Assembly: GCA_013214525.1 (NCBI GenBank)
Contig: JABSSG010000014.1
Coordinates: 33,232-97,231 of the forward strand
From: Rickettsiales bacterium
GTDB lineage: Bacteria; Pseudomonadota; Alphaproteobacteria; Rickettsiales; JABSSG01
Length of the DNA: 64,000 nt
Direction: 5' to 3'
Shown: piece by piece, positions 4,350 to 58,382 of the stretch
Position numbering within the stretch: the stretch's first letter is position 1
Layout: each line of letters opens with the position of its first letter
Position numbers and translations under genes: made by a program
The notes under the pieces: model-generated
The model's input: only the letters and a program-made list of their open reading frames with translations
Databases searched by the model: none
Told to the model about the DNA's origin: nothing

Positions 4350-7103
4350 ATGGTATCTCATATAGATATAGCGATAGTAATTGCTTATATGTTTTTTTGT
4401 TTGGTAGTTGGTTTACTAAATTATGGGAAAATAAAAAATATACGAGATTATACGTTAGGAACAAAATCTTTTCCAACTATTGTATTAATGGTTACTACTC
4501 TCGCAACTACTCTTGGTGCTGAAAAAGTGATAGGCAATGTAGGAAAAATACATAAATTAGGGCTGACCTATATAATACCTCTAATTTTTGTTCCTTTGCC
4601 ATGGTTTATATTAGCAAAAATTATTGCACCTAATTTGCAGACATTTCATAAGCATAAATTTATTTCTTTAAGTGATATTATGGAACATTGGTATGGTGTA
4701 TTAGGGAGATGGTGTACTAATATTATATCTATATTTTTTGCTATTGGTCTTACTGCAATGAGTACGATGGTAATAGGCTACTTACTACATTATTTTCTAG
4801 GTGTTTCAGAAACCATAGGTATGGTTATCGGTCTTGCTGTTGTTACACTTTATTCGGTGTTTGGTGGTATATCCTCGGTCGCTTTTACAGATTTATTTCA
4901 AGCATTAATATTTTTTGTAGCATTACCATTAGCTTGTTTTAAAGGGCTTCAATCTACTGGAGGAATCGAAGCAATATGGAAATCATTGCCCAATAAACAT
5001 ACACAAATACATGATGTTCCTTTATTTGTCAGTTTTATATTGTTTGCATTAATACCTGCTAGTGGAATTCCTTATATACAAAGAGCTTTAATTGCGAAAA
5101 ATGAAAAACAATTCTTGAGAAGTTTTACTGGAGTAGCGATTTTGATTATACCTGTCTTAGTAATAGTGTGCCTAATAGGGTTAATAACTTACGGCAACAA
5201 TCCCAATATAGAATCTGATAAGGTGCTATATTATTTTATAAATAACCATTTGTCGGTGGGTCTAAAAGGGCTAATGATAGCAGGATTACTTGCTTTAATA
5301 ATGTCTACTCAAGATTCATATTTAAATACAGTAAGTGCGTTGCTTGCTCATGACGTTTTTAAACAAAAATGGTCTTCTTTAACTGACAGACAGGAATTAT
5401 TAATTGCCCGTGGTTCTTGTTTAGCTATTTCAATTGCTTCTATTACAATAATTTTTGTAGGCAAAGGTATTATGGAAACTATATGGTTAGTGGTGAGCTT
5501 TGCATATCCGTTAATAACAATACCTTTGATAGCAGGGTTGATTGGTGTACGCATAAGTAAACAATCGTTTGTTGTTTTGATAATATCATCACTTACTACT
5601 ATTATAATCACACGGCTCTTTACAGGTGTATTTGATACAAGAAGTATGTCAGTTGGTATGATAGCTTCAGCAATTGTTTTATATATTTTACACAAAAGAC
5701 ATAAAAGAGAATCTATATTTTCTTTGCCAAAAATTAATGTGACTCAAATGTTTGATAACTTGAGCAAACGAGTTTTAAAGAATTCTTATTCGATCCGCTC
5801 TTTATACACAGTTGGTATGGTTCTTTGTATTAATTTTTTAGTTGGTATATTTTTTGCAAATTTATATTTCTTTAATCCACTTAATGTTTCTTTAGGGGTA
5901 ATGGTGTTTTTACTCCTTATGCTATTATTAAATGAACTTTGGCATTTTTATTTGAAGAGATATTTAATTAATATTTGGAGATTTTGTCTCATTTTAGGTT
6001 TGTTATTTATTCCTTCTTACATATTTTTTGTACATGACTTTCACATTTTTTGGTTATGTAACCTTATATTATCAGCAGTCTTATTTATTGTAGTGAGTGA
6101 TATTATAATTGGTATCGCATTTATAGCAATTGCAGTCCCTCTTGGTTATTTACTGTCTCAAATCTTTTATTCAAATGGTAATTTAATAACGATTGAGTTT
6201 GCCATTATATCATGCCCTGCAATATTAATTGCAATTTCTATGCAGCTGTATGACCGTCATACTATTGCTAAAACTAGCCATAAAGAAATAACGTATGAAT
6301 TAAAAAAAATCATGCAAGAAAAAGTAATGGAATCTCTAAATATTAAAGAAGAATTTCTGAATAAACTTAATCATGAACTAAGAATACCTCTTAGCGTGAT
6401 GATTAATACATCAGATAGTATTTATGAAATGTGGGATAAGTTATCCGACAAAGATAAGAAAAAATATCTTAAAGACGTTGTTGACAACAGGAAAAGGTTT
6501 GAAAGTTATACATTAAACATTCTTGATCTTGCAGATTTAGTACAAAAAAGATTTAAGCTAAATATAAAACCTAATGTTAATTTAGTAAAACTAAGTGAAG
6601 CAGCTATTGATAAAGCAACATCACTTATTGTAGATGCTAACAAGAATCTTAAAATCAAATTAGAAGTAAAAAATGCTAAAATGGCAATTGCTAGCTGTGA
6701 TGAAAAAAGAATACAGCAAGTGCTGAGCAACTTACTATCAAATGCTATTAAATATAGTGATCATGGAATTATAAAAGTACTTATTAAACCTGCTAAAGAT
6801 AAAATAGCAATTTCAGTTTCTGATGAAGGGGTAGGAATACCAAAAAGTGAAAAGTCAAAAATATTTACGCCATTTTTTGAAAGCAGTAGAACTAAAAGCT
6901 CTGCTGAAGGTAAAGGACTTGGTTTATCTATAGCTCAAAAGATAATTACTTTACATCATGGTATTATTAAAGTGAAGGATAATGACAGCAAACATTCAGG
7001 GTCTATATTTACATTTATATTGCCATGTGAGTCTGAGGAAGTAGCAAGTGAGGATGGTTTGGCAACAAAACGTAATCTGGAAGAGTTTAAAAAAGCTGCT
7101 TAA
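4350..7103 (+). CDS. Hybrid sodium:solute symporter (SLC5/SSF) domain - 6 TM - histidine kinase, paralogue 1
   Basis: 917 aa. Residues 1 to about 470 are polytopic and SSF-like (about 13 TM). Residues about 480-640 hold six further hydrophobic helices. Then come the H-box FLNKLNHELRIPL, N-box LLSNAIKYS, G1 SDEGVGIP and G2 GKGLGLSIAQ. SD ggaggaag lies upstream of the ATG. Confidence 0.8.
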   Translation: MVSHIDIAIVIAYMFFCLVVGLLNYGKIKNIRDYTLGTKSFPTIVLMVTTLATTLGAEKVIGNVGKIHKLGLTYIIPLIFVPLPWFILAKIIAPNLQTFHKHKFISLSDIMEHWYGVLGRWCTNIISIFFAIGLTAMSTMVIGYLLHYFLGVSETIGMVIGLAVVTLYSVFGGISSVAFTDLFQALIFFVALPLACFKGLQSTGGIEAIWKSLPNKHTQIHDVPLFVSFILFALIPASGIPYIQRALIAKNEKQFLRSFTGVAILIIPVLVIVCLIGLITYGNNPNIESDKVLYYFINNHLSVGLKGLMIAGLLALIMSTQDSYLNTVSALLAHDVFKQKWSSLTDRQELLIARGSCLAISIASITIIFVGKGIMETIWLVVSFAYPLITIPLIAGLIGVRISKQSFVVLIISSLTTIIITRLFTGVFDTRSMSVGMIASAIVLYILHKRHKRESIFSLPKINVTQMFDNLSKRVLKNSYSIRSLYTVGMVLCINFLVGIFFANLYFFNPLNVSLGVMVFLLLMLLLNELWHFYLKRYLINIWRFCLILGLLFIPSYIFFVHDFHIFWLCNLILSAVLFIVVSDIIIGIAFIAIAVPLGYLLSQIFYSNGNLITIEFAIISCPAILIAISMQLYDRHTIAKTSHKEITYELKKIMQEKVMESLNIKEEFLNKLNHELRIPLSVMINTSDSIYEMWDKLSDKDKKKYLKDVVDNRKRFESYTLNILDLADLVQKRFKLNIKPNVNLVKLSEAAIDKATSLIVDANKNLKIKLEVKNAKMAIASCDEKRIQQVLSNLLSNAIKYSDHGIIKVLIKPAKDKIAISVSDEGVGIPKSEKSKIFTPFFESSRTKSSAEGKGLGLSIAQKIITLHHGIIKVKDNDSKHSGSIFTFILPCESEEVASEDGLATKRNLEEFKKAA

Positions 7104-7210: not shown

Positions 7211-8275
7211 ATGCTAAATAATATATTTATTTTTATAGTAGCTAAAATGACCGTAGAGAATCAAAATTATACGACTGCAGATAAAAATCTTTTCTTGAGC
7301 AAGTCTTTAAATCAAAAAGAATTTTCTAGTCAATCACTTCCTTATGATGCTTCTACTAGAAGATATGAGAGAATAACATCATCTCAAGAAACTTTTATAT
7401 TAATGGATGCTTCTTTAGATAAAAATACTATTAAACCATTCATGTTTATAGCAGACCTCTTATATAAAAATGGTTATTCTGCACCTAAGATATTTACACA
7501 AGATAAAAATCTTGGTTTCTTACTTTTAGAAGATTTAGGCGAGATAAGCTATGCTTCTTTATTGACAAATCCTTCTAAAGAAGATTTAGCAGAAATAGAA
7601 AAAAAACTTTATAAAAAAGCAATTGACCTTTTAATTGATTTACATAAAAAAATAGTCGTCAATAAGATAGAAGTCTCTTCTTATAAAAAAGAATTTCTTA
7701 CTAATGAAGCTGTTTTATTAGTAGATTGGTATATTCCAACATTGACTGGAAGTCCAATTTCAGAGAATTTAAAACAAGAGTATATACAGGCATGGGATAA
7801 AATTTTTAATCATATTTATTATGCTGAATCATGTTTAGTTCTAAGAGATTATCATATTGATAATTTAATGTGGTTAGAAGATAGACAAGGAATAAAAAAA
7901 GTTGGTTTGCTTGATTTCCAAGATGCTGTTAAAGGTTCTTATGCTTATGACGTAGTTTCTCTTCTTGAAGATGCAAGACGTGATGTTAATGAAAAGATGT
8001 CTCAAGAATTGTTGGAGTATTATATAAGTCAAATGGAGATATTGGATAGAAAGAAATTTCTATCTGATTATAAAATACTTGGGACACAACGTAGTTGTAA
8101 AATTGTAGGGATTTTTACTAGAAAAGCAATACGTGATAATGATACAAGATACTTAAAACATTTATCAAGGGTGTGGGGGTATATAAAAAAACATATTAAT
8201 CATCCAATACTTGAGCCTTTAAGGATTTGGTTTCAAAAAGCGAATATTCCTGTTATGAACATTTCTACTTTATAA
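7211..8275 (+). CDS. amgK: Anomeric MurNAc/GlcNAc kinase-like phosphotransferase (APH fold)
   Basis: 354 aa. YDASTRRYERI N-terminal motif, LRDYHIDNLMW catalytic loop and GLLDFQDA. It sits immediately upstream of a MurU-like nucleotidyltransferase, the conserved AmgK-MurU pairing. The true start may be the internal Met (MTVENQ...). Confidence 0.6.
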   Translation: MLNNIFIFIVAKMTVENQNYTTADKNLFLSKSLNQKEFSSQSLPYDASTRRYERITSSQETFILMDASLDKNTIKPFMFIADLLYKNGYSAPKIFTQDKNLGFLLLEDLGEISYASLLTNPSKEDLAEIEKKLYKKAIDLLIDLHKKIVVNKIEVSSYKKEFLTNEAVLLVDWYIPTLTGSPISENLKQEYIQAWDKIFNHIYYAESCLVLRDYHIDNLMWLEDRQGIKKVGLLDFQDAVKGSYAYDVVSLLEDARRDVNEKMSQELLEYYISQMEILDRKKFLSDYKILGTQRSCKIVGIFTRKAIRDNDTRYLKHLSRVWGYIKKHINHPILEPLRIWFQKANIPVMNISTL

Positions 8276-8281
8276 ATTAAA

Positions 8282-9016
8282 ATGATAAAACAAGCATTTA
8301 TTTTAGCAGCAGGTCTTGGCACTAGAATGAGGGAGTTGACTAAAGAAATTCCTAAGCCAATGATTACAGTAATAGGTCAATCTCTTATTACGAGATTAAT
8401 TGATCAACTTATTGCGCATGGAGTAACTAGGATTATTGTAAATACTTTCTATAAAGCTGATTATTTAATAGAGCATGTAAAAAAACATATGGAAAAGAAT
8501 TCCAGTGAAGTAGAAATATTTTTTTCTAAAGAGTCAGAATTACTAGATACTGGAGGAGGTATAGTTAATGCTCTAAAATATCTTAATAACGAACCTTTTT
8601 TTGTTGTAAATAGTGATGCAGTTTTCATAGGAGATGAAAATGTTTTCTCTTTTCTTAATAAGAATTGGGATAGCTCTATGAAAACACTTTTCTTATTAGC
8701 ACCACTAGAAAGAACAATAGGTCATGATGGTAAAGGTGATTTTTTCTTAGGTCCTGAAAAACAATTAATATTACCTAAAGATGATCTTGTTAATCCATCA
8801 CATGTATATATAAGCACTCATATAACTAGACCAGAAATTTTTAAAGATCATAAAGCTGAGCCGATAAAATTGATGGAAATATATAAGAAATTTCTTGATA
8901 ACAATATTTTAGAAAATTCATATGGGATTACTTACCCTGGTCAATGGTTGCATGTAGGGACACCTGAGGCGTTAGATCAAGCTGCTAGCTTTATTACTAA
9001 CCCTGATTGCAAATAA
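8282..9016 (+). CDS. murU: N-acetylmuramate-1-phosphate uridylyltransferase-like nucleotidyltransferase
   Basis: 244 aa. N-terminal FILAAGLGTRMRELTKEIPKPM (the GxGTRxxPxT NTP-transferase signature). It starts 6 nt after the amgK-like gene. Confidence 0.6.
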   Translation: MIKQAFILAAGLGTRMRELTKEIPKPMITVIGQSLITRLIDQLIAHGVTRIIVNTFYKADYLIEHVKKHMEKNSSEVEIFFSKESELLDTGGGIVNALKYLNNEPFFVVNSDAVFIGDENVFSFLNKNWDSSMKTLFLLAPLERTIGHDGKGDFFLGPEKQLILPKDDLVNPSHVYISTHITRPEIFKDHKAEPIKLMEIYKKFLDNNILENSYGITYPGQWLHVGTPEALDQAASFITNPDCK

Positions 9017-13266: not shown

Positions 13267-15459
13267 TTAAGTTAACTCTTTTTCTCTCTCTAAATTCAAC
13301 AACATATCTTTATGTTTTAAATTAGTAGGCAGGATAATTTCAACTATTGCATTATCATAATTGCCATTCTTGATTATAAGCTCACCTTCGTGGTCATCAA
13401 CAATTTTTTTTACTATTGCAAGTCCTAACCCTGTTCCTTTTGCTTTAGTAGTAAAATATGGTTCAATAATTTTGTTTATTGAGGATTTTTTAAAACCTTG
13501 GCCACTGTCTTCTACAATAATATGTGCGGCATTAGATTTTTTATATAAAGATACGTTTATAAATTTTTCTTTTTTATGATTTATAATACCTCGTAATGCT
13601 TCCTCTGAATTTTTGATTACGTTTGTTAATAGTTGGCGTATTTGTGTCGAATCGAAACATCCTATTATATTTTTTTCTATATTTGCTTCAAATTTAATAT
13701 CTTTGCCAATAATTTTACGAGAAAAGATTACATCAGTAATTAACCTACTCAAATCTACTCTGTCAAACATAGGAGTAGGCATTCTAGCAAATTTGGAGAA
13801 CTCTTCTATTATTTCTCCTATATCTTGAGAGTGTCTTATAATTGTATTGACATACATGTTAAAATCTTTTTTATCTTTTATATATTTTGAATATTTTTCC
13901 TTAATTCTTTCTGCTCCAAGCTGTATTGGTGTTAAAGGATTTTTCACTTCATGAGCAATTTTTCGTGCAATATCAGACCAAGCTTTATATCTCTGTGCCT
14001 GAATAATCTGTGTCATATCATCAAATGCTATAATATAGCTTATAACATTATTTTGTTTATCAACATCCTTACCTACTTTAACCAGAAAAGTCAGTGCACG
14101 TCCTTTAATTCTAGATTTTACTTCTCCACTAATTTCTTTAGTTTTTGAGTTAGAGATTTTATTTATTAAACCAAGAAATTCAGGTAATAATTGGAATAAA
14201 TCTAAACTCTTTATATCAGATTTTTTCAGACCTAGCAGTTTCATACCAGATTCGTTGATAAGTGTTACTTTACGATTAGAAGAAACTGCGATAATTCCTG
14301 TAGAAACCCCCGATAATACCACCTCCATAAATTTTCTTTTTTGATCTATTTCATTATATGCATGGATCAGTTTTTCTTGTTGTTCTGATATTCTCTCAGT
14401 CATTAGATTAAAAGCTCTGGAAAGATTTGCTATCTCGTCATTTTCTGGTCCTTCAGGTAATTTAACTGCGAATTTTCATTTCTTTACTTTTTCGGTTGCT
14501 AATACAAGCCTTATAATTGGATCAAGTATAGCTTTAGAAAAAGATATGCCAATAATGCCTGCGATTAAAAGCAACACTATGGAGATCATTAAAAACGCAA
14601 AAGAAGACTTTAATTGTAATTCCATTATATTGCTTTTAATGGAATTATATTTAGTTGCAGCATTCTGGGATTGTTTTATATGTTTTACAATAGCATTGTC
14701 TATTTGCTTACCAATAACTAAAAAACTATTTGGCGTGCTATGTAAGGCTGTTATAGCACGAATTTTATTAAGTTTTTTAAATATAACAGTTTCTCCATTT
14801 GCTGCCCTTTTATAATATTCATCAGGTATTCTCTCAAGAGACAATGAAATACCAAATCTACTTCTAAGAACTGGGGCATGTCCATAAAATATAGCGGCCT
14901 CAGACATATCATTTAACTCGACAAAAGAGTTAATTACGTCAAAAAATAATTTAGGTTTAGAGGCTAAATCATGTTTAATTATGTTGTCGTCTAGTTCACT
15001 AGCAATAGATTTAGCTTTCATTTTTATCATCTCTTGATTTTCTTTAAGATATGATTCAGCTACAAGAACTGATTCTTCTAGCACTGTTGTAATTTTTTTA
15101 TCAAACCAAGATTCAACTACATAATAAAGAAAGAAATTAGCAATTATTGCTAAAATTAAAGTTGGGACACCTGAGAGCAAACTAAAAATTAATAGGATTC
15201 TTTTTTGTAATCTTGATCCATAAAGCTTTCGTTTCTTATTTATTCTACTGAAAAATATTTTTCTAAATACGAAAGACATAAGAAAAACAAAGAGGAGCAG
15301 ATCTAAAATCAAAATAAAAACAAGGTAACGATTATACTTTCCTGTGTCCCAATTGCTTTCAAGCAAGAAGAAGGTGCCTGTGAGAGACACAGCTAATAAG
15401 AGTATTAAAAACGTTGCTCTTATTTTTATGAAAGAAAAAAAGTGTTTAACTTTTTGCAT
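13267..15459 (-). pseudogene. ntrY: ntrY sensor kinase reading frame interrupted by one in-frame TGA (14476..14478)
   Basis: Track ORFs 14476..15459 (TM sensor plus start of HAMP) and 13267..14403 (PAS, H-box AHEVKNPLTPI, HATPase) are in the same frame (15459-14403=1056). The 72 nt between them have no stop and encode KFAVKLPEGPENDEIANLSRAFNL, which is the rest of the HAMP domain. Confidence 0.7.
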
Positions 15460-15876: not shown

Positions 15877-18588
15877 ATGGTATCTCATATAGATATAGCG
15901 ATAGTAATTGCTTATATGTTTTTTTGTTTGGTAATAGGGTTGCTTAAATATGGTAAGATTAAAAATATACGTGACTATACACTTGGTACTAAACCTTTTC
16001 CAACTATCGTATTAATGGCAACAACTCTTGCTACTGTAATAGGCACAGGGCGTATAATTGGTAATACAGAGAAAGTATATGAATTAGGAATAATTTATAT
16101 GATTTCTTTTATTTTTGTTCCTATATCTTGGCTTATTCTAACAAGAATGCTTCTTCCTAATATTCAAATATTTCGTAAACATAAATTTATTTCATTAAGC
16201 GATATTATGGAATATTGGTATGGTAAGTTAGGCAGATGGGTAACTAATGTCATATCAATATTGATAGCAGTTGCAGTTGCTGCAAGTAGTGCTATAGCTA
16301 TTGGCTATCTCCTGCATCACTTTTTAGGTATCTCAGAAACTATAGGCATAATTATTGGTTTAGGTGTTGTTACAATTTATTCTGCATTTGGAGGTATAAC
16401 TTCTGTTGCTTTTACTGATGTATTTCAATTTTTAATATTTTTTATAGCCCTACCTATCGCTTGTTTTATTAGTTATCAGGACACAGGAGGGCTTGAAAAA
16501 ATATGGCATTCACTACCAGAAACACATACACATATTAAAGTAGATAATATTCCTTTATTTGTTAGTTTCATATTTTATTCATCACTGCCTTATATTGATA
16601 TTTCAAGTATTCAAAGAGTTTTAATAGCGAAGGATAGGGAGCAATTATTGCGGGCTTTTATAGGGGTAGCAATTTTAACAATTCCTCTAATGATGATAGT
16701 GTGTTTTATAGCTTCAGTAACTTACCATGATAATCCTAATATTGAATCTGGTAAAGTATTGTATCATTTTATAGATAATTATTTACCTCCAGTTTTGAAA
16801 GGGTTTATGATAGCTGGGATTTTGGCAGTTATAATGTCTACTCAAGATTCTTACTTAAATACCACAGGTGTATTGATATCACATGATGTTTGCAAGCAAA
16901 TTTGGCCTTCTTTGACGGATAGACAAGAATTATTTATTGCTCGTATTTCTTGTGTTGTTATAGCTTTAATTTCTATCTCAATGATTGTTTTAACAAAGGG
17001 TATTATGGATATGATATGGATTGCTGGTAGTTTTTCAGCACCATTAGTAGCAACTCCATTAATGGCAGGACTGATCGGAGCACGAATTAATAAAAGTTCA
17101 TTTATTGGTGTAGTGATCTTTTCACTTATAGCCATAGTAATTACACGTTTTGTTACAGGAGTATTTGATACAAGAAGTCTTGCGGTTGGTATGGTAACTT
17201 CAGCTATTGTTTTGTATATCTTACACAAAAGAAATAAAGGAGAGTCTGTATTTTCTTTTCCTAGAATTAATGTGAATTTGTTATTTAATAAACTAAATGA
17301 GCAAGTATTAAATAGTTCTTATTCTATTAATTCTTTATATAGGGTTGGTGTAGTTCTTTGTGGTAATTTTTTAGTTGGAGTAGCTTTTGCAAATTTAGAT
17401 TTCTTTACTCCATTTAATGTTACTCTTATTGTTATATCAAGTTTATTGATGTTGCTTTTACTAAATGAATTCTGGAATTATAGATTAAAGAGGTATTCCA
17501 TTGATATTTGGAAGGCTTGTCTCACCATTGGTCTATTATTTGTTCCTTCTTACATATTTTTTGCACATGACTTTCATATGCTTTGGTTATGTAATCTTAT
17601 ACTGTCGACAATTTTATTTATTGTGATGAGTGATATTGTAGTTGGTATTGCATTTGCAGCAATTGCTGGGTCAATTGGCTATCTCCTTTCTCAGATTTTT
17701 TATTTCAATGTAAGTTTAGTATCAAGAGAGTTTGGAAATATTTCATGTGCTGCAATGTTAATTGCAATTGTTATACAAATATATAATCGTCATACTATTA
17801 CTAAGAATACTTATAGGGAAATAATGCGAGAAGTGGATAGAAAAACTGAAGAAAGAGCTGTAGAACTTAAGAAAGCTCTCAATATAAAAAAAGAATTCCT
17901 AAATAAATTAAGCCATGAAATCAAAAATCCTATACATAATATGCTTGCCTTATCAGAAGGCATGTATGATTCGTGGTATGAATGGTCAGAAGAGGAAAGG
18001 CAAACATTTATTAAAGGAGTGATCGATAGTAAAAAAAGTTTGATGGATTATACTTCAAGTATTCTTGACCTTGCTTTATTGGAAGAGGAAAAAATGCCTC
18101 TTGATATAAAAAAAGGAGTAGATCTTATTGATCTTGCTAAAGATGCTATTAATAGAATTTCACCTCTTGTTATAAAACAGAACAAAAATATCGGTGTTGA
18201 GTTAGAAATACAAGCCTCAAAGCCAGCAATTGTTAAATGTGATTCTAAACGAATAAGTCAAGTAATAGATAGTATATTAAAAAATGCTATTACATATACC
18301 CAGTATGGTACAATTAAACTATCTATTGATACTAAAAAAGATTATGTAAGAGTATCTATAGCAGATCCAGGAGTGGGTATACCTGACGATGAAAAGTTAG
18401 AGATATTTACCCCATTTTTTGAAGGTAGTAGAACCAAGAGTTTAGCTAGAGGTAAAGGAGTTGGACTTTCTATTGCACAAAAGATAATGATTTTACACGG
18501 GAGTACTATTCAAGTGAAAGATAATGAAAGTAAACCAACTGGGTCAGTCTTTTCATTTATATTACCATCTAAAGACCTCGAATTTTAA
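15877..18588 (+). CDS. Hybrid SLC5/SSF domain - 6 TM - histidine kinase, paralogue 2
   Basis: 903 aa, collinear with 4350..7103 along its whole length. H-box FLNKLSHEIKNPI, N-box ILKNAITYT, G1 ADPGVGIP, G2 GKGVGLSIAQ. The first 19 codons are nucleotide-identical to paralogue 1. Confidence 0.8.
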   Translation: MVSHIDIAIVIAYMFFCLVIGLLKYGKIKNIRDYTLGTKPFPTIVLMATTLATVIGTGRIIGNTEKVYELGIIYMISFIFVPISWLILTRMLLPNIQIFRKHKFISLSDIMEYWYGKLGRWVTNVISILIAVAVAASSAIAIGYLLHHFLGISETIGIIIGLGVVTIYSAFGGITSVAFTDVFQFLIFFIALPIACFISYQDTGGLEKIWHSLPETHTHIKVDNIPLFVSFIFYSSLPYIDISSIQRVLIAKDREQLLRAFIGVAILTIPLMMIVCFIASVTYHDNPNIESGKVLYHFIDNYLPPVLKGFMIAGILAVIMSTQDSYLNTTGVLISHDVCKQIWPSLTDRQELFIARISCVVIALISISMIVLTKGIMDMIWIAGSFSAPLVATPLMAGLIGARINKSSFIGVVIFSLIAIVITRFVTGVFDTRSLAVGMVTSAIVLYILHKRNKGESVFSFPRINVNLLFNKLNEQVLNSSYSINSLYRVGVVLCGNFLVGVAFANLDFFTPFNVTLIVISSLLMLLLLNEFWNYRLKRYSIDIWKACLTIGLLFVPSYIFFAHDFHMLWLCNLILSTILFIVMSDIVVGIAFAAIAGSIGYLLSQIFYFNVSLVSREFGNISCAAMLIAIVIQIYNRHTITKNTYREIMREVDRKTEERAVELKKALNIKKEFLNKLSHEIKNPIHNMLALSEGMYDSWYEWSEEERQTFIKGVIDSKKSLMDYTSSILDLALLEEEKMPLDIKKGVDLIDLAKDAINRISPLVIKQNKNIGVELEIQASKPAIVKCDSKRISQVIDSILKNAITYTQYGTIKLSIDTKKDYVRVSIADPGVGIPDDEKLEIFTPFFEGSRTKSLARGKGVGLSIAQKIMILHGSTIQVKDNESKPTGSVFSFILPSKDLEF

Positions 18589-18760: not shown

Positions 18761-19885
18761 TTATTTGTTTAACGCTCTATCTTTTTTTACTAAAGAAACA
18801 GTGCCGTTAACTAAAGAGGTAAATATATCATCTATTGTGATACCTAACCTTCTTGCGTTTGAAATATCATATACTCCATCTAAGGCTTTGCTGTGTTCTC
18901 CATGAGTGCCTCGTACAGCTAGGCTATATTTCTTAGCAATTGATTTAATGGTTTTGATGTCAATATTTTTAAGTTTTATGTGAACACTTACACGCATTCC
19001 TGTACCTATGTTTGTAGAGTCACTGTTGAGATATCCAAGTTTATCATCATGTGCAAATTTTAAATCTTTCTCTAATATATTTAGGGCATGAACAAATTTA
19101 CTATGTATTTTTTCTAAATCAGCAGTTTTTTCTAAATATATAATTCTGAGATGGTCTTCTTCGTTAATCCACACTATAAATTTTTTATCTTTACTAATGT
19201 AAGCACCTCTTCCTACAGGCCAATTATCTGCTATACCTGCGGATTGTAAGTATTTATCCTTATTCATAGGTTTAAAGATCAGATGTTCATTTACCATTTT
19301 TTTGTATTGATCTTCAGATAATGAACCTATGGAATAATATGTGCCTTGGTATTTTTTAGGTAATTCTTTTATTGCAGTAAGCACAAGATCTTTCACCTGT
19401 ATTCTTTGTTTTTTTGTCATAGAAGATGGGAAAGGGAAAGAAGATAAATTCCTTGCAACTCGTATTCTTGTGGAGATTACATTTTTGGAAAGTATTTTTC
19501 GATCTTCTTTTGTGAAATTAAATTTTACTATTTTTGTATTCTTGTTATCCAGAGAGTATGGGTCGTAGTTATGATAGTTTTTTATCGCATGAGAAAAAAT
19601 AGGACTAAACATTGTATAAGATTCTGCATCTCCTGCATAACATCCTATTTTACTGTCTGGGTTTTCTACACCACTTTTTAAAATATGGTCTAATGTGACC
19701 CCAAATTTTGTCTTTTTTTCTTTTAATACATTTCTTTCAGATTCACTTAAAATCTCAAAACCTTCTATACAAAGTGCTTTTGCGTATACCGTGTTACTAA
19801 TAACACCAGACAATAGGGCTATAGACAATAGGGTTAAAGATATATGTTTTAGATATTTAGGGGTGGATTTGAGATTTTGAAACAT
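18761..19885 (-). CDS. Arginine kinase-like phosphagen kinase (ATP:guanido phosphotransferase) with N-terminal signal-peptide-like extension
   Basis: 374 aa. SGVENPDSKIGCYAGDAESY (arginine-specificity loop), STRIRVARN, WINEEDHLRI, GTGMRVSVHIKL and VRGTHGEH..DGVYDISNARRLG parallel arthropod and Limulus arginine kinases. N-terminus: MFQNLKSTPKYLKHISLTLLSIALLSGVISNTVYAKA. Confidence 0.8.
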   Translation of the reverse strand: MFQNLKSTPKYLKHISLTLLSIALLSGVISNTVYAKALCIEGFEILSESERNVLKEKKTKFGVTLDHILKSGVENPDSKIGCYAGDAESYTMFSPIFSHAIKNYHNYDPYSLDNKNTKIVKFNFTKEDRKILSKNVISTRIRVARNLSSFPFPSSMTKKQRIQVKDLVLTAIKELPKKYQGTYYSIGSLSEDQYKKMVNEHLIFKPMNKDKYLQSAGIADNWPVGRGAYISKDKKFIVWINEEDHLRIIYLEKTADLEKIHSKFVHALNILEKDLKFAHDDKLGYLNSDSTNIGTGMRVSVHIKLKNIDIKTIKSIAKKYSLAVRGTHGEHSKALDGVYDISNARRLGITIDDIFTSLVNGTVSLVKKDRALNK

Positions 19886-50961: not shown

Positions 50962-53670
50962 ATGTTCGGGTTTTTATTAAAGAGATTATTTAGCACTGTA
51001 AATGAGCGTTATATAAAAACTTATTCTAAGGTAGTAGAAGAAATAAATTCTTATGAAGGCAAAATTCAAGTTCTTTCTGACAAGGATTTAAAAAATCAAA
51101 CCAATCTTTTAAAAAAAAGGATAAAGCAGGGTGAGAGTTTAGATGAAATATTACCGGAAGCTTTTGCAACGGTAAGAGAAGTAGCTCATAGAATTCTAGG
51201 TCAACGACATTATGATGTACAACTGCTTGGCGGTATAGTTTTGCATAATAAAATGATTGTGGAGATGAAGACGGGTGAAGGAAAAACGCTAACTTCAACT
51301 TTGCCTATATATTTAAATGCCTTAGAAGGTAAAGGTGTTCACATAGTAACTGTTAATGATTATCTAGCCAAAAGAGATGCAGAATGGATGGGTGCTATTT
51401 ATAAATTTCTTGGTTTAACAGTTGGGTACATAACAAATAGTTCTTCTGAAGAGGAAAGAAGAAACGCATATCATAGTGATATTACGTATTCGACAAATAA
51501 TGAGCTGGGGTTTGATTATTTGCGGGATAATATGAGATATTCTCCAGATCATTTTGTACAAAGACCTTTTAATTATGCAATTATTGATGAAGTTGATTCT
51601 ATTTTAATAGATGAGGCAAGAACTCCTCTTGTAATTTCTGGTCCTGCAGAGGATAAATTGGATCTTTATTACACTATAGATAAAATAATTCCTAAATTAG
51701 TTAGCAAAGATTATGAAATTGATGAAAAATCAAAAAATATTTCTTTAACTGATATAGGTATTACTCATGTTGAGAAGTTACTTGAAGAAATGGAGGTAAT
51801 GGAGAAGGGGTCCAGCTTATTTGATATTAAAAATATTTCTGTGTTGCACCACATTAATCAAGCTTTAAAGGCTCATCATTTATTTAAGAATAACATTGAT
51901 TACATAGTGAAAGACAATCAAGTAATGTTGATTGATGAGTTTACGGGACGTATCATGGATGGTAGAAGATTCTCAGAGGGCTTACATCAGGCATTAGAAG
52001 CAAAAGAAAATATGCCAGTGCAAAATGAGACACAAACGCTCGCTTCTATTACATTTCAAAATTATTTTAGATTATATCCAAAACTTAGCGGTATGACTGG
52101 TACTGCAGCAACAGAAGCGTCTGAATTCAAAGATATTTACAATTTGCAAGTAGTATCAATACCAACAAAAAATCCTGTAATACGTGTAGATGAAAATGAT
52201 ATTATATACCGCACCACAGAAGAAAAATATAGAGCTATTATTAAGGAAATAGAAGAAGCCTATAAAAAGAAGCAGCCAATTTTAGTAGGTACAATAAGTA
52301 TTGAAAACTCTGAATATATTTCTAAATGCCTTAAGAAGAAAAATATTAGACATAAAGTCTTAAATGCAAAATATCATGAAAAGGAAGCACAAATTATTGC
52401 TCAAGCAGGCCAACCTAAAGCTGTAACTATTGCTACTAACATGGCAGGCCGTGGAACAGATATAATGTTAGGTGGTAATCCAGAAATGCTTGCTAAATCA
52501 ATTTTGGATACTTCAGATCTTTCAAAACATGAGAAGGAATATAAAAAAATACGAGAGCAAGTTAAAGAGGATAAAGAAATTGCTTTATCTGCAGGAGGGT
52601 TGCTTGTAATAGGTACTGAACGCCATGAAAGCAGACGTATAGACAATCAGTTGCGTGGAAGATCAGGCAGGCTTGGAGATCCAGGGAGAACCATATTTTA
52701 TATTTCTTTGGAGGATGATTTAATGCGTATTTTTGGTTCTGAGAAAATTTCATCTATTCTGAAAACTTTAGGACTGAAAAAAGATGAAGCAATATTTCAT
52801 CCTATGATAAGCAAAACAATTGCTAAAGCACAACAAAAAGTTGAAGCAAGAAATTTTGAAATTAGAAAGAACTTGCTTAAATTTGATGATGTGATGAATG
52901 ATCAAAGGAAAATAATTTACGAACAAAGAAATGATATAATGACAACAAGCGAAGTGTTGCAAGTTGTTAAAGATTTATGTGCTGATTTAAATAAGGAGTA
53001 TATAGATAGCTGTATTAAAGAAGAAAAATTTAAAGAGGAATGGGATGTAGAAGGTTTCACAGGTAAGTTGATGACTGCTTATGGTGCTGACTTTTCAATA
53101 AAAGACTTCATACATAAGAATGATGGGATAGGTATGAAGGAGATAACAGAATATTTAGATAAGAAATCTGATAAGTTTATTGATGATAAAATAAAAACTT
53201 TTGGGGAAGAGGCTTTTAATACAGTGGCAAGACGCATTTTACTGGTTACTATAGATCAACTTTGGAGAGATCATTTGCTTGTGTTAGATCATCTCCGACA
53301 TGGAATATATTTACGTGCTTATGGTCAGAAAGATCCACTGAATGAATATAAACAAGAAGCTTTTACTCATTTTTCTACTATGCTTTCTAATATTAAAGAG
53401 ACTTATGTGTCAAGAATTAGCAGAGTACAGATTACTAATATTGAAGATGAAGAGGATCTATTAGAAGAACCAGAACAAGATCTACAGGTTTTACGTTATG
53501 ATGTAGCTATGTCTGGTGTTGATGAAGGTAATGATGCTAAGGGAACTATTGTTAACAAAGAATTTGACTTAAAAGACCCTACAAGTTGGGGGCAAATTGG
53601 TAGGAATGAACCTTGCCCTTGTAAATCAGGAAAAAAATATAAACGCTGTCATGGTCAGTTGAAATCTTAA
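50962..53670 (+). CDS. secA: Preprotein translocase ATPase SecA
   Basis: 902 aa. MKTGEGKTL, DEVDSILIDEARTPLIISG-like block, TNMAGRGTDI, C-terminal zinc finger CPCKSGKKYKRCHG. Confidence 0.95.
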   Translation: MFGFLLKRLFSTVNERYIKTYSKVVEEINSYEGKIQVLSDKDLKNQTNLLKKRIKQGESLDEILPEAFATVREVAHRILGQRHYDVQLLGGIVLHNKMIVEMKTGEGKTLTSTLPIYLNALEGKGVHIVTVNDYLAKRDAEWMGAIYKFLGLTVGYITNSSSEEERRNAYHSDITYSTNNELGFDYLRDNMRYSPDHFVQRPFNYAIIDEVDSILIDEARTPLVISGPAEDKLDLYYTIDKIIPKLVSKDYEIDEKSKNISLTDIGITHVEKLLEEMEVMEKGSSLFDIKNISVLHHINQALKAHHLFKNNIDYIVKDNQVMLIDEFTGRIMDGRRFSEGLHQALEAKENMPVQNETQTLASITFQNYFRLYPKLSGMTGTAATEASEFKDIYNLQVVSIPTKNPVIRVDENDIIYRTTEEKYRAIIKEIEEAYKKKQPILVGTISIENSEYISKCLKKKNIRHKVLNAKYHEKEAQIIAQAGQPKAVTIATNMAGRGTDIMLGGNPEMLAKSILDTSDLSKHEKEYKKIREQVKEDKEIALSAGGLLVIGTERHESRRIDNQLRGRSGRLGDPGRTIFYISLEDDLMRIFGSEKISSILKTLGLKKDEAIFHPMISKTIAKAQQKVEARNFEIRKNLLKFDDVMNDQRKIIYEQRNDIMTTSEVLQVVKDLCADLNKEYIDSCIKEEKFKEEWDVEGFTGKLMTAYGADFSIKDFIHKNDGIGMKEITEYLDKKSDKFIDDKIKTFGEEAFNTVARRILLVTIDQLWRDHLLVLDHLRHGIYLRAYGQKDPLNEYKQEAFTHFSTMLSNIKETYVSRISRVQITNIEDEEDLLEEPEQDLQVLRYDVAMSGVDEGNDAKGTIVNKEFDLKDPTSWGQIGRNEPCPCKSGKKYKRCHGQLKS

Positions 53671-53708
53671 TTCTAAAAACCTCAATTAGTAATGTTAAAG
53701 TAGGGCTG

Positions 53709-54758
53709 TTATAATGTTGTAAAATCGTTTATTTCACAGTGAGTACTGTTATAATAGAATATATTATACAGCTTCTGTATTGCACTTAATGGTGATATAG
53801 AGTTAGATCTACTATAATTAACTAACTCTAATATTTTAGAAGAAATGTTATATATTTGTTTTTTTAAATTCTCGTTTTTGAAGTATTGATATGTACAATA
53901 CATTAATCCACCACAGTTAATTATTTCATCAGGAATATAAAGAATTCCTTTTTCGTATAAATATTTATCTAAAGATGTGCATGAGAGTTGATTATTAGCA
54001 GCACCACATATTATTTTACACCTCAAGCGTTTAACTGTTGTATGATTTATTACTTGTCCTAATGCACAAGGCACAAAAAAATCACATGGTAAATCATAAA
54101 TTATATCTGGAGCAACATACTTAATTTGTGGATGCTGCATTAAGATATCAAATGCTACCTCTTTTTTAATGTCAGTAATTGTAATATTGTAATTTTTCTT
54201 TAGCAATTTATGCAATAATATATTGCCTACATTACCTATGCCTTGAATTGCTATGTTAACTTTTTTTGTAGGTATTTGAAGAAAGTTATCAGTTAAAATA
54301 TTAATAGTTCTATATATCCCTTCAGCCGTATATTTAGATGGTTCACCTCCAACGATATCATGATTTGTTACATATGATGTTTCTTCTGCGATATAGTTCA
54401 TGTCTTCTTGGGTGATACCACTATCCATAGCGGCAATATATTCACCACCTAGCTTTTCGATAAACCTACCTAAAGCTTGGAAAAACATTTTTCTATTTAT
54501 TATTGTTTGTGGGGTAGCATTTATTACACATTTAGCTCCACATAAATTGATATTATTAAATTTTGACTTATTGTGCATAGCACTTACTAAAGATATCAAG
54601 TCTTGTTTTGCTAGATCTTCATTTAAATATTTTTTTACTCTGCATCCCCCAATTCCTCTATGAGGGTTCTTATTCACTACTCCTATATAAGCATTTAGTC
54701 CAGTTTTGTTATCAAAACAATGGTAGATATTGAGTGGTAACTTATGATTTGGAGTCAT
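53709..54758 (-). CDS. Glu/Leu/Phe/Val dehydrogenase-family enzyme (Leu/Val dehydrogenase-like)
   Basis: 349 aa. HRGIGGCRVKKY (compare GPALGGTRMW), NLCGAKCVI (catalytic Lys of the GGGK motif), Rossmann IQGIGNVGNIL. Its start overlaps the coaX stop by 17 nt. Confidence 0.7.
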   Translation of the reverse strand: MTPNHKLPLNIYHCFDNKTGLNAYIGVVNKNPHRGIGGCRVKKYLNEDLAKQDLISLVSAMHNKSKFNNINLCGAKCVINATPQTIINRKMFFQALGRFIEKLGGEYIAAMDSGITQEDMNYIAEETSYVTNHDIVGGEPSKYTAEGIYRTINILTDNFLQIPTKKVNIAIQGIGNVGNILLHKLLKKNYNITITDIKKEVAFDILMQHPQIKYVAPDIIYDLPCDFFVPCALGQVINHTTVKRLRCKIICGAANNQLSCTSLDKYLYEKGILYIPDEIINCGGLMYCTYQYFKNENLKKQIYNISSKILELVNYSRSNSISPLSAIQKLYNIFYYNSTHCEINDFTTL

Positions 54759-55536
54759 TATTTTTGTTTTGTATTATTAATAAGCCGTGGAGAGTAAGAT
54801 CTGGTTCAGTAACAGTAAATAAATTTTCTTCTTTGAATAGATATGCATATCCTCCAGTCGCAATAATAATAGGTTTAGACTTGTTAAATACAATATCGAG
54901 AAAATGTGCAATCAGTTCTTTCACTGCTCCCAATTGACAGTAATATAAACCAGATTGAATATTTTCTTCTGTTGATCGTCCAAGAGCTTTTTCAGGTTTT
55001 TTTATACTTACTGGCATAAGTTTTGCTGTATTTTTATGTAATGACTCCATAGAAATCTTATATCCAGGCAAGATACTACCTCCTAGGTATTCTTTGTTTT
55101 TAGAGATGCAACATAGAGTAGTTGCCGTTCCAAAATCAATTAATATGATGTTTTTATTTGGAAAATTATGAAGTGCTGCTACTGCGTTAGCAACTCTGTC
55201 TGCTCCGAGTCCTAAAGGATTTTTTATATTCAATTTCAATCCAGTTTTAAGACCAGATCTTAGTTCTAGTGGTACAATATTAAAATACTTTATACATGCA
55301 GCATTTATAGAGTAATTAACGGAAGGAACTACTGAGCAAATTATAATACTTTCTATGGATTTTGTATCCATATTATTTTCACGTAATGTATTTTTTAAAA
55401 ATACCCCAAACTGATCTGAAGTACAATATGGGTGTGTGGGGTAACGAAATTTTAATTTAATTTTTTTATTAATAAAAACCCCACATACAATATGAGTATT
55501 ACCTACGTCTATGCATAATATCATTTCATTCTCCAT
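54742..55536 (-). CDS. coaX: Type III pantothenate kinase
   Basis: 264 aa. [30 protein letters not shown]. Confidence 0.9.
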
Positions 55537-55861
55537 TTTTTAAATCTATTATTATAGGGTTTATTTTTTCTTCCAGAGGATTAATCAATGCATATGATAT
55601 TATAAAGATTTGATCTTTTAATTCTCCTCTGCGTGCCGTTGCTCCATTTAATCCAAAGATTTTACTATTAGGCTCTCCTTCAATAACATAAGTATCAAAC
55701 CTTTCTCCATTATTAAGATTGACAATTTGCACTTTCTCTCCTGGTACTATATTAGCTTTCTCCATAATATTTTTATCAATTGTAATGCTGCCAGCATAAT
55801 ATAGATTTTTATGAGTAATCGTTGCATAAGAAATCTTAGATTTTAATTTGGTGATTAACAT
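55526..55861 (-). CDS. panD: Aspartate 1-decarboxylase
   Basis: 111 aa. [23 protein letters not shown] contains the self-cleaving Gly-Ser. [17 protein letters not shown]. Confidence 0.9.
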
Positions 55862-55862
55862 T

Positions 55863-56633
55863 TTATGCCTCTATAATTACGTTATCAATTAACCTAGTAT
55901 GACCAATTTTAACGGCAATGAATATTCTGTTATGAACTTTTTGCAGATACTCAATATCTATTCCTGCATCAAATAATTTACTCTGCATTTCTTCAATATT
56001 CATTTTAATATTATTATGAAATACCTGTGCAAACCTTCTTGCTGTCTTTATTTCTGCATTAGAAAGATTATTATTTCTTGAACTTTTAGGTAATTTATAC
56101 TTGTCTCTTATAGTAGAACAAACAATGATTTTTGTGTCTATGAAGTAATGTTTTGCCATTTCTTTTATCAATACATATTGTTGGTAGTCTTTTTCTCCAA
56201 AATATGCATTATTAGGTTTAGTTAGAAGCAATAATTTTAAAACTATTGTTAGCATACCATTAAAATGTCCTCGTCTAAATTTACCTTCCAGAATTTTTGA
56301 TAATGGATGATCTGATACAATATTAAATTGGTTATTGAGATATAGCTCTTTTTCTAAAGGAATAAATACAAAATCAACTTTTAGATTTTTAAGAAGTTCA
56401 ATATCTTTATCTAGTATTCTGGGATAACTTTCATAATCTTTCTGATCGTTAAATTGGATAGGGTTTACAAAGATACTTACTATATTTATATCATTACGTG
56501 CTATCGACTTTTTTATTAAAGATAAATGACCTTTGTGTAAACACCCCATGGTAGGAACAAAACCAATTTGTGCTTTGAAGCTAATATTTCGTCTAATATT
56601 TATCCATTCTTGTATATTACGTATAATTTTCAT
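55863..56633 (-). CDS. panC: Pantoate-beta-alanine ligase
   Basis: 256 aa. [34 protein letters not shown]. Confidence 0.9.
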
Positions 56634-57429
56634 GTTTTGATTGATATATATGTTCTAATTCGGAAGGAAATTTTTTAGAAATTACTTCTGCACTAAATTT
56701 ATTTAATGCTTCAGTTACTAATGTATGTCCAGTTAAGAAATGTTTTAAAAATTTAGGTTTAAATTCAATTTGCATTCCTAGCAAATCTTGCAACACTAAG
56801 ACTTGACCGTTTGTATAAGGTCCTGCACCTATTCCAATAGTTGGAATAGATAATTCACTTGTTATTTGTTTTGCTAATTCGGAAGGTACACATTCAATGA
56901 CAATAGCAAAACAACCGGCTTGTTCTAATAACTTAGCCTGATGTATTAGAGTTAGCCAAGATTCTTTATCTTTCCCTTGTACCTTAAACCCTCCTAGTTT
57001 ATGTACGTGTTGTGGAGTTAATCCTATATGGCCTATTACAGGAACGCCAGATGTTACAATATGATTTATTATTTCTAAATTCCCTTCAGATCCTTCTAAT
57101 TTTATTGCTTGTGCTCCTGATTGTATTAATTTTTGTACATTATTAATAGTGTCCTCTGCAGATTTTCTGTAGCTCATAAATGGCAAGTCTGCAACTAAAA
57201 GCTTTGTGTGTAATCCTCTGGACACAGCTTGAGTATGTTGTGCCATCATTTCCATAGTTGCATATGTGGTGTTAGGGTATCCATGCATTACCATTGCAAC
57301 ACTGTCTCCGACTAATATACAATCTATTTTACTTTGCTCAATTATTTTTGCACTTGTATAATCATAACAAGTTACCATTGTAATTTTTTGATTGTTTTTT
57401 TTACGTTGCAAGAATAAATTTATGTCCAT
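56617..57429 (-). CDS. panB: 3-methyl-2-oxobutanoate hydroxymethyltransferase
   Basis: 270 aa. ITMVTCYDYTSAKI, LVGDSVAMVMHG, KLEGS, GHIGLTPQ. Confidence 0.9.
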   Translation of the reverse strand: MDINLFLQRKKNNQKITMVTCYDYTSAKIIEQSKIDCILVGDSVAMVMHGYPNTTYATMEMMAQHTQAVSRGLHTKLLVADLPFMSYRKSAEDTINNVQKLIQSGAQAIKLEGSEGNLEIINHIVTSGVPVIGHIGLTPQHVHKLGGFKVQGKDKESWLTLIHQAKLLEQAGCFAIVIECVPSELAKQITSELSIPTIGIGAGPYTNGQVLVLQDLLGMQIEFKPKFLKHFLTGHTLVTEALNKFSAEVISKKFPSELEHIYQSKHENYT

Positions 57430-57431
57430 AA

Positions 57432-58154
57432 CTATATACCTTTATAAAAAGTCTCTATAAATACTTTAAAAATATTGTAAAAATTTTCCCCTTGTAAGGC
57501 TTGAAGATCATCATCTAGGGTTTTTTTATCATTTCTTACTAGAGGACCAGTTAATGCGTTGAGATGGTCTTGTTCAAGATTAGCGAAAGTTTGTTTTAAG
57601 AATGGCAATATAGATTGCTTTTTTATTTGAAATTTATTTTCAGCTTCTAAAAAAAATTTTTGCCACAATAACGTAGTGAAATTATTAGCAGCAACACATA
57701 GGGCATGATAATAATGCTTTTCTAACCGCTTAATCCTATAATGTGGATTACTTACTCTAGGTAACAGCTCAGAAAATGTTGGCCCCTCAAGCTCAATAAT
57801 AAAAGGAATTTTTAAGTAATTTTCAAAATCGTATAATGATGAAGAAAACGTTTGTAATGGATGAGCAGTAAAAGCATATTTAGACAGTAAATTCCCAGAG
57901 CAATGGAGTAACACCCTATTCTTTTGAATACTATGTGGAACATATCTCTCAATAAAAGAATCGATTTGAGAATCTGTGATTAAAAGGATAATATGAGAGG
58001 ATCTATTGAGTAATGACTTTAATAATTGTAGATTATTCTTATCTTTATTACGATACCAATTGCTGTAAGATAAGTTAAGATAATCAAAGTAATAACAAAG
58101 ATGCTTTGCAACTCTGCCATTACCTATTATCAGGTAATGTGGTACCTGTCTCAT
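57432..58154 (-). CDS. panG: Rossmann/DUF2520-type putative ketopantoate reductase (PanG-like)
   Basis: 240 aa. N-terminal IIGNGRVAKHL dinucleotide fold; C-terminal ALTGPLVRNDKKTLDDDLQAL resembles the DUF2520 TGPxxRGD block. First gene of the pan cluster, ending 2 nt before panB. Confidence 0.5.
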   Translation of the reverse strand: MRQVPHYLIIGNGRVAKHLCYYFDYLNLSYSNWYRNKDKNNLQLLKSLLNRSSHIILLITDSQIDSFIERYVPHSIQKNRVLLHCSGNLLSKYAFTAHPLQTFSSSLYDFENYLKIPFIIELEGPTFSELLPRVSNPHYRIKRLEKHYYHALCVAANNFTTLLWQKFFLEAENKFQIKKQSILPFLKQTFANLEQDHLNALTGPLVRNDKKTLDDDLQALQGENFYNIFKVFIETFYKGI

Positions 58155-58257
58155 AGATCAAGTCCTAAAGTTAATTTTTATGTATTTAGTCATCTCCTTA
58201 AGGTAGATGCATCACCATATAAATAACAATGTTTATTTTATAGGTCAAGTCCTAAAA

Positions 58258-58281
58258 TTTTCCTAATTCATTATTAGGGTT
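58258..58281. repeat. Solo family-2 TIR-like copy
   Basis: ttttcctaattcattattagggtt versus ttcttaatccattattggggtt. Confidence 0.4.
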
Positions 58282-58382
58282 ATAAATGTAAATAATTTTT
58301 TGAATCACATTAAAAATCTGTTTCCTTTTGAAATAAACTGGTACAATTTTAATAAATGAAATGATTTAAAGATTAATATTCT

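Follow-up and report, generated by a model that had tools for sequence, protein, structure and literature searches.

We describe here six tightly packed genes in a 64-kb stretch of DNA (the window, by which we mean the whole stretch analyzed) from a metagenome-assembled genome (MAG) that is labeled Rickettsiales at NCBI. The first five genes, panG-panB-panC-panD-coaX, belong to a known type of operon for the synthesis of 4′-phosphopantothenate. The sixth, gene 6, encodes a dehydrogenase of the Glu/Leu/Phe/Val (ELFV) family. An original prediction, made from the DNA sequence by itself, proposed that this enzyme could convert valine to 3-methyl-2-oxobutanoate, the substrate of PanB, and so feed the operon. 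We report on the genes, their relatives in other genomes, and how far this proposal can be carried.

Operon structure and gene identity

The window's list of open reading frames (ORFs) contains all six genes on the minus strand at 53709 to 58154, as originally reported (Table 1).

Table 1. Features of the six-gene locus and its borders, in window coordinates
Feature	Position	Strand	Remarks
Gene 1, candidate PanG-like ketopantoate reductase (DUF2520)	57432..58154	-	240 aa; N-terminal GNGRVA dinucleotide-binding motif
Gene 2, PanB 3-methyl-2-oxobutanoate hydroxymethyltransferase	56617..57429	-	270 aa; TIGR00222 and Pfam
Gene 3, PanC pantoate--beta-alanine ligase	55863..56633	-	256 aa; TIGR00018
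Gene 4, PanD aspartate 1-decarboxylase	55526..55861	-	111 aa; Pfam Asp_decarbox, Gly24-Ser25
Gene 5, CoaX type III pantothenate kinase	54742..55536	-	Longest ORF 264 aa; likely start Met5 at 55524, 260 aa
Gene 6, NAD-type Glu/Leu/Phe/Val-family dehydrogenase, leucine dehydrogenase branch	53709..54758	-	349 aa; NCBI accession NRA73527.1
Intergenic region panG/virB8, divergent	58155..58382		228 bp; presumed operon promoter region
Spacer between convergent secA and dehydrogenase 3′ ends	53671..53708		38 bp; operon end

The assignments of panB, panC, panD, coaX, and a PanG-like gene are borne out by both Pfam and NCBIfam scores. Curated equivalog cutoffs are passed by PanB (TIGR00222, 309 bits versus a cutoff of 207.55; Pfam Pantoate_transf, E = 2.5e-105), PanC (TIGR00018, 237 bits versus 212.75), and CoaX (NF009855, 307 bits versus 233). 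PanD falls 2 bits short, with 104 bits versus a cutoff of 106 for TIGR00223; it scores 130 bits versus a cutoff of 25 for Pfam Asp_decarbox (E = 6.4e-38). Its translation retains the Gly24-Ser25 self-processing (self-cleavage) site, numbered as in Escherichia coli PanD.

Gene 1 matches Pfam DUF2520 (PF10728) with 57 bits versus a cutoff of 25 (E = 2.3e-15). The GNGRVA motif occupies residues 11 to 16, and G11 and G13 are invariant across an alignment of 16 homologs; some sources name members of the full set of 618 homologs 2-dehydropantoate 2-reductase. The protein is 42% identical over ~232 aa to that of the DUF2520 gene heading the operon of Francisella sp. GCA_036281735.1 (L050), which we infer to be the ortholog of FTT1388, and 53% identical to that of the gene in the same position in a marine Coxiella sp. 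(L011). Family and operon position together make gene 1 a candidate PanG, the ketopantoate reductase defined by Miller et al. (2013, J Bacteriol 195:965, as cited in PMC4684696 and PMC5449765).

The recomputed spacings along the operon are +2, −17, +1, −11, and −17 nt and equal those first given. The 11-nt overlap of panD and coaX, however, is more likely a 1-nt gap, because alignments to the NCBIfam CoaX models begin only at residue 5 of the 264-aa ORF and the public gene call for CoaX is 260 aa long, starting 1 nt past the panD stop codon. This junction is tight under either CoaX start. At the next junction the dehydrogenase ATG lies within the last coaX codons (…AAT AAT GAC TCC AAA TCA TAA), and the resulting overlap of 17 nt leaves space for neither a terminator nor an intergenic promoter.

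The window has 31 pairs of same-strand neighbors. Outside the six-gene block only four of these overlap: tkt/gap (−4), gap/pgk (−14), adenosine deaminase/GMP-reductase-like (−16), and virB8/virB9 (−4). In each of the four, the two genes are linked in function. Gene overlap in this genome goes with shared function, within a small sample of 31 pairs from one window.

The intergenic region upstream of panG is the sole sizeable noncoding gap adjoining the block. An Rfam search of the window gave two tRNAs only and no element in this region. A promoter scan returned 33 promoter-like sites versus 32 expected and is uninformative in AT-rich DNA of 30% GC content. In the same AT-rich DNA, a scan for terminators detected neither a minus-strand terminator nor a terminator-like hairpin in the spacer at the operon end. 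An assembly chimera is unlikely, since the locus sits on a contig of 237,995 bp and was read on three public contigs (ENA, Logan, and NCBI).

Operon type and origin

The earlier statement that this gene order is that of Francisella agrees with the loci themselves. The same five genes, headed by a DUF2520 gene and tightly packed, occur in this order in Francisella L050, and the five-gene order recurs in the marine Coxiella sp. MAG NORP135 (L011/L012). The first five window genes match these operons in content, order, and tight packing, with proteins 42 to 66% identical, whereas the Francisella/Coxiella-type operons end at coaX without a downstream ELFV dehydrogenase and the window's host is labeled Rickettsiales. 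Scanning the GTDB species representatives with a PanG alignment yielded 32 loci, in Coxiella, Legionellales, Francisellaceae (Cysteiniphilum, Fangia, Facilibium, and Caedibacter), and scattered other phyla. Nearly all of them read panG-panB-panC, followed by panD and/or coaX. Because this arrangement is shared by Francisella, Coxiella, and the GTDB panG loci, genes 1 to 5 represent a known operon type. Three distant panG loci have a gap of ~1.2 kb between panC and coaX (L027, 7663 to 8860; L030, 9290 to 10537; L042, 9193 to 10380), which may hold a birA-like gene or a fused BirA-CoaX.

The Rickettsiales label fits the backbone of the window, which encodes a large VirB6-like protein, VirB8/VirB9, NtrY/NtrX, a DUF2497 protein, an ankyrin-repeat protein, and psd-pssA. 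GC content stays at ~30% across the window, and composition does not shift at the operon. PanG-like matches at 49 to 56% identity are labeled Gammaproteobacteria, Coxiella, or Legionellales, and CoaX matches at 56 to 65% identity include Francisella and Coxiella. PanB is 61% identical to that of Legionella adelaidensis, compared with ~50% at most for all 349 Rhizobium/Sinorhizobium plasmid records. Since the pan homologs carry gammaproteobacterial labels while the backbone genes and the NCBI label point to Rickettsiales, the operon was probably acquired laterally from a gammaproteobacterial lineage. The original hint of such an origin thus finds agreement in the labels of the PanG-like matches and in the PanB identity ranking.

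Laterally acquired pantothenate genes have been described in Wolbachia wCfeT, wCori, and wMeur1 (PMC9903615, PMC10438800). Those sets resemble the window operon in that panG-type genes were gained within Rickettsiales and have their closest homologs in distant symbiotic bacteria. They differ in comprising three or four genes (panB, panG, and panC, with or without panD) and no coaX, whereas the window operon has coaX and a candidate keto-acid-forming enzyme.

A close relative of the window organism (L008) has an NtrY 70 to 77% identical and PanG, PanB, PanC, and PanD 73 to 83% identical to the window proteins. Its pan operon lies in a different neighborhood, so the operon either predates the split of the two organisms and moved or is mobile. 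The L008 contig breaks off inside panD, and no CoaX or dehydrogenase near 70% identity was found in the databases searched. In L008 (5446 to 8742), genes for a transporter of the aspartate:alanine exchanger type (Asp-Al_Ex) and for a class I/II aminotransferase of 530 aa, similar to aspartate 4-decarboxylase, lie ~1.3 kb upstream of the pan operon. Its panC is seemingly frameshifted (214 aa plus 46 aa), and the coverage of the contig is 2×.

Two observations concern the surroundings of pan genes. In the window, secA (50962 to 53670, plus strand) abuts the 3′ end of the operon convergently, and in an unrelated gammaproteobacterial MAG (L009, 10758 to 13481) secA is convergent with the pan operon too, with a mutT-like NUDIX gene between them. 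Cotransfer of secA with the operon was rejected, as identity between the two SecA proteins is only 50%; the adjacency seems to be coincidental or to reflect an insertion preference common to both. Plasmid 28 of Legionella adelaidensis, which carries panB-panC, was considered as a mobile pan locus and rejected. It bears sdhCD, feoAB, and zapE and is probably a piece of the chromosome, and no dehydrogenase adjoins its panB-panC.

The sixth gene

Gene 6 carries both ELFV dehydrogenase Pfam domains and is full length, with residues 12 to 340 aligning end to end with solved leucine dehydrogenases. Its best PDB matches are leucine dehydrogenases (182 bits; 1LEH at E = 1.6e-52, then 7VID, 8HPE, and 6ACF), ahead of tryptophan dehydrogenase (157 bits, 5.6e-45), phenylalanine dehydrogenase (95 bits, 4e-26), and glutamate dehydrogenase (1e-11 or weaker). 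Full-length matches at E values of about 1e-52 settle the predicted fold. In 1LEH numbering, gene 6 keeps K68, K80, D115, N262, N287, and G289-G290; query residues K64, K76, D112, and N256 align to Lys68, Lys80, Asp115, and Asn262 of 1LEH. The GxGxxG motif is present as GIGNVG, and the NAD-specifying acidic residue is the Asp of ITITD. The PDB ranking and the 1LEH residue mapping agree in placing gene 6, whose catalytic Lys is retained, within the Leu/Val dehydrogenase branch, as had been proposed, and its product is very probably an active aliphatic amino-acid dehydrogenase.

The substrate pocket of gene 6 reads I36/A110/L285/C288, versus L40/A113/V291/V294 in 1LEH. All of these residues are uncharged, and a Cys at position 294 is rare. 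Leu at position 291 is also the phenylalanine dehydrogenase state, versus Val in leucine dehydrogenase. The GGGK motif of 1LEH reads CGAK in gene 6; the variant GGAK and Leu291 are both common in clearly functional relatives. The I/A/L pocket pattern matches that of relatives (34 to 39% identical; I-A/S-L among them) that adjoin branched-chain keto-acid dehydrogenase genes. Relative to the leucine dehydrogenase (LeuDH)/Bcd group, represented by B. sphaericus LeuDH (1LEH) and the Bcd enzyme of the Bacillus bkd operon in branched-chain amino-acid catabolism, gene 6 has the same fold family and catalytic residues and a pocket that would likewise be hydrophobic. It differs in its partner, a pantothenate operon, and in the changes L40I, V291L, V294C, and GGGK to CGAK.

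Relatives were sought among about 15 billion proteins overall, with a word-indexed search of 5.8 billion clusters and an exhaustive HMMER search of 1.84 billion representatives. Both searches gave a single cluster (P0002/P0440) at 47 to 48% identity to gene 6 and all else at 40% or less. At least two relatives at 34 to 39% identity, P0003 and P0012 (Legionellales MAG), lie directly upstream of genes for branched-chain keto-acid dehydrogenase E1a/E1b/E2. Adjoining genes of this kind are the classical catabolic setting of Leu/Val/Ile dehydrogenases. Identity to an annotated bcd gene is 34% and to a Legionella amino-acid dehydrogenase 36%. Branched-chain keto-acid dehydrogenase E1/E2, the usual partner of Leu/Val dehydrogenases, was not found in the 64-kb window; such a partner belongs to the context of these enzymes and does not define them.

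The closest homolog (48% identity) is part of a conserved, tightly overlapping five-gene cluster on metagenome contigs of 27% GC content (L001, 1439 to 7314; also L002, L051, and L052). Besides the dehydrogenase, its genes specify an Fe/2-oxoglutarate hydroxylase-like protein similar to clavaminate synthase, an aminotransferase of the PRK08637 type, a D-2-hydroxyacid dehydrogenase, and an enzyme resembling isopropylmalate synthase. The PanB substrate 3-methyl-2-oxobutanoate is also the canonical substrate of isopropylmalate synthase, and this neighbor offers a weak but suggestive parallel to the PanB link.

What follows coaX varies between pan operons. The slot is empty in Francisella, Coxiella, and locus L049, and it holds coaBC in a metagenome contig (L047, 378 to 4943), where panG-panB-panC-panD-coaX is followed by an overlapping coaBC for six consecutive steps toward coenzyme A (CoA). 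The L047 operon has the same five genes as the window, at 51 to 64% identity, and likewise a sixth gene overlapping coaX. Its sixth gene, for a phosphopantothenoylcysteine synthetase/decarboxylase, extends the pathway downstream, whereas that of the window would extend it upstream as a source of substrate. Because L047 carries coaBC there, pathway-related genes do get appended after coaX.

Proposed function and alternatives

The reading that we favor, at a chance that we judge to be about even, is that a laterally acquired Francisella/Coxiella-type operon is joined to a dehydrogenase that deaminates valine to 3-methyl-2-oxobutanoate for PanB. The gene 6 enzyme would oxidatively deaminate imported L-valine with NAD+ to 3-methyl-2-oxobutanoate, which PanB would hydroxymethylate to ketopantoate and PanG would reduce to pantoate. 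PanD would convert aspartate to beta-alanine, PanC would ligate pantoate and beta-alanine, and CoaX would phosphorylate the product to 4′-phosphopantothenate. The locus would in this way lead from two host amino acids to 4′-phosphopantothenate without the ilv pathway or the IlvE transaminase, and PanC and CoaX, whose steps are irreversible, would draw the otherwise unfavorable deamination forward. The dehydrogenase gene would have been added to the operon as a translationally coupled sixth gene. Such a route presupposes that valine is the substrate, that the reaction runs toward the keto-acid, that the six genes are cotranscribed, and that other sources of the keto-acid are lacking.

This reading builds on the identities, order, and coupling of the six genes, on the complete set of catalytic residues, and on a sixth gene that is unique among the loci sampled, and it argues for the valine role from gene coupling and family chemistry. 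It is supported by the 17-nt overlap with coaX, given that the other overlaps in the window join related genes, and by the leucine dehydrogenase relatives, the retained residues, and the seemingly aliphatic pocket of gene 6. It is supported further by coaBC in L047, which shows linked genes appended at the sixth position, and by the clustering of the closest homolog with an isopropylmalate-synthase-like enzyme. Characterized leucine dehydrogenases accept valine well, and no ilv, ilvE, or keto-acid dehydrogenase genes were found within the window. A last support is that Rickettsiales with acquired pan genes have a recognized need for a valine-to-keto-acid step: in Wolbachia with laterally acquired panB/panG/panC, formation of the PanB substrate calls for an ilvE-type step, which was assigned to the host (PMC9903615).

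Several points weigh against such a role. Forty panG loci were fetched (about 36 distinct), 32 of which extend at least 4.4 kb downstream of panG, and tblastn found no ELFV homolog within 7 kb in any of the ~36 distinct loci. The arrangement of pan genes with a dehydrogenase is known from one genome only, and the L008 contig ends too early in the operon for conservation of the link to be shown. The nearest relatives of gene 6 elsewhere stand in a catabolic setting or in the five-gene cluster rather than in pantothenate synthesis. Identity to characterized enzymes is only 34 to 40%, and a valine preference is not readable from the sequence; two unusual cysteines (C73 and C288) lie near the active site. 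The equilibrium of this dehydrogenase family favors amination. Beyond the 64-kb window, ilvE, other ilv genes, or genes for a keto-acid dehydrogenase complex might lie in the rest of the genome.

The best surviving alternative, which we consider unlikely though deserving of attention, is that gene 6 encodes a general enzyme of branched-chain amino-acid catabolism that landed at, or was cotransferred to, the end of the operon and has no part in pantothenate synthesis. It would yield NADH along with keto-acids to be used by a keto-acid dehydrogenase complex whose genes lie elsewhere. P0003 and P0012, the relatives directly upstream of E1a/E1b/E2 genes on Legionellales-type contigs, have the same pocket pattern as gene 6, and the dehydrogenase is conserved in no other pan locus. 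Genes for such a complex are, however, missing from the window, and at 34 to 39% identity to its catabolic relatives gene 6 forms a lineage of its own. The 17-nt overlap with coaX moreover implies long-standing translational coupling and not a recent chance juxtaposition.

A less probable alternative, which we rate as rather doubtful, is that the enzyme has another substrate or direction and that its link to pantothenate is incidental. The enzyme might form Leu, Val, or Ile by amination of host keto-acids, in line with the family equilibrium, or act on another hydrophobic amino acid such as Phe, Trp, norvaline, or 2-aminobutyrate. Among the NCBIfam models, that of the tryptophan dehydrogenase ScyB scores best, though far under its cutoff (198 versus 600 bits); set against this, leucine dehydrogenases outscore both tryptophan and phenylalanine dehydrogenases among the PDB matches. 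Leu291 is shared with phenylalanine dehydrogenases, whereas Ala113 is the leucine dehydrogenase state and the combination of the two is common in keto-acid-dehydrogenase-linked relatives. The five-gene cluster of the closest homolog, with its hydroxylase-like protein and aminotransferase, suggests unusual amino-acid chemistry. Making valine would nevertheless be counterproductive inside an operon whose first committed enzyme uses that very keto-acid.

That gene 6 is a decaying passenger without function is highly improbable: its singleton lineage and the unusual Cys residues in the GGGK motif region and the pocket would fit decay, but the ORF is full length and aligns across residues 12 to 340 with leucine dehydrogenases, every catalytic and cofactor residue is intact, the gene-dense window with its short gaps argues against the keeping of dead genes, and the GGAK variant with Leu291 is common in clearly functional relatives.

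The valine-to-PanB reading can be extended to a history of the locus, in which a Rickettsiales-like symbiont unable to make branched-chain amino acids recruited a divergent valine dehydrogenase into an acquired operon and so obtained a self-contained six-gene module. We offer this scenario tentatively, with a confidence that stays somewhat below even.

The original prediction regarded the coupling as undescribed. A literature search combining leucine/valine dehydrogenase with pantothenate, panB, or ketopantoate agrees, returning only metabolic-engineering reviews, in which the two pathways meet at the keto-acid node, and no natural operon coupling. The underlying need, on the other hand, has already been discussed for Wolbachia (PMC9903615), and the idea is an increment on that recognized problem and not a new concept. 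Operons of the type of genes 1 to 5 and pan transfers into Rickettsiales were likewise known already, while the appended dehydrogenase, with its plausible role, appears to be new. In reduced intracellular bacteria, panBC(G) is often retained or gained while the valine pathway, the source of the PanB substrate, is missing, and authors assume that the host or IlvE fills the gap (PMC9903615, PMC4684696).

If the proposal is true, a dehydrogenase in the operon would be a concrete solution to the gap at the PanB substrate and a third candidate to consider in metabolic reconstructions of symbionts. The six genes would then form a compact cassette that leads from two amino acids to phosphopantothenate. 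It could be redox balanced, with NADH from the valine step offsetting the reduction of ketopantoate. It would also be the first example in nature of IlvE/ilv being replaced by an amino-acid dehydrogenase as the dedicated entry step to vitamin B5. Its importance is limited, because the arrangement occurs in one genome only and the chemistry is unsurprising.

Other genes in the window

NtrY is split in the window into two ORFs 72 nt apart (13267 to 14403 and 14476 to 15459, both on the minus strand), of which one is an NtrY_N ORF and the other a PAS-HisKA-HATPase ORF. The L008 NtrY is intact at 731 aa and 70 to 77% identical to the split protein. The division could be genuine, could mark a pseudogene, or could stem from an error in sequencing.

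A gene at 18761 to 19885 (minus strand) encodes a 374-aa eukaryote-type phosphagen (arginine) kinase with its N-terminal domain. Its best PDB matches are animal arginine kinases (E = 1e-74 to 1e-145), versus 1e-24 for bacterial McsB protein-arginine kinases, and the gene was probably acquired from a eukaryotic host. In two large paralogs (4350 to 7103 and 15877 to 18588, both on the plus strand), a sodium:solute symporter domain is joined to a histidine kinase (HisKA/HATPase), an architecture like that of CbrA-type sensor-transporters. Genes for an APH-family kinase and an NTP-transferase, 6 nt apart at 7211 to 9016 (plus strand), presumably resemble the AmgK/MurU pair of cell-wall sugar recycling.

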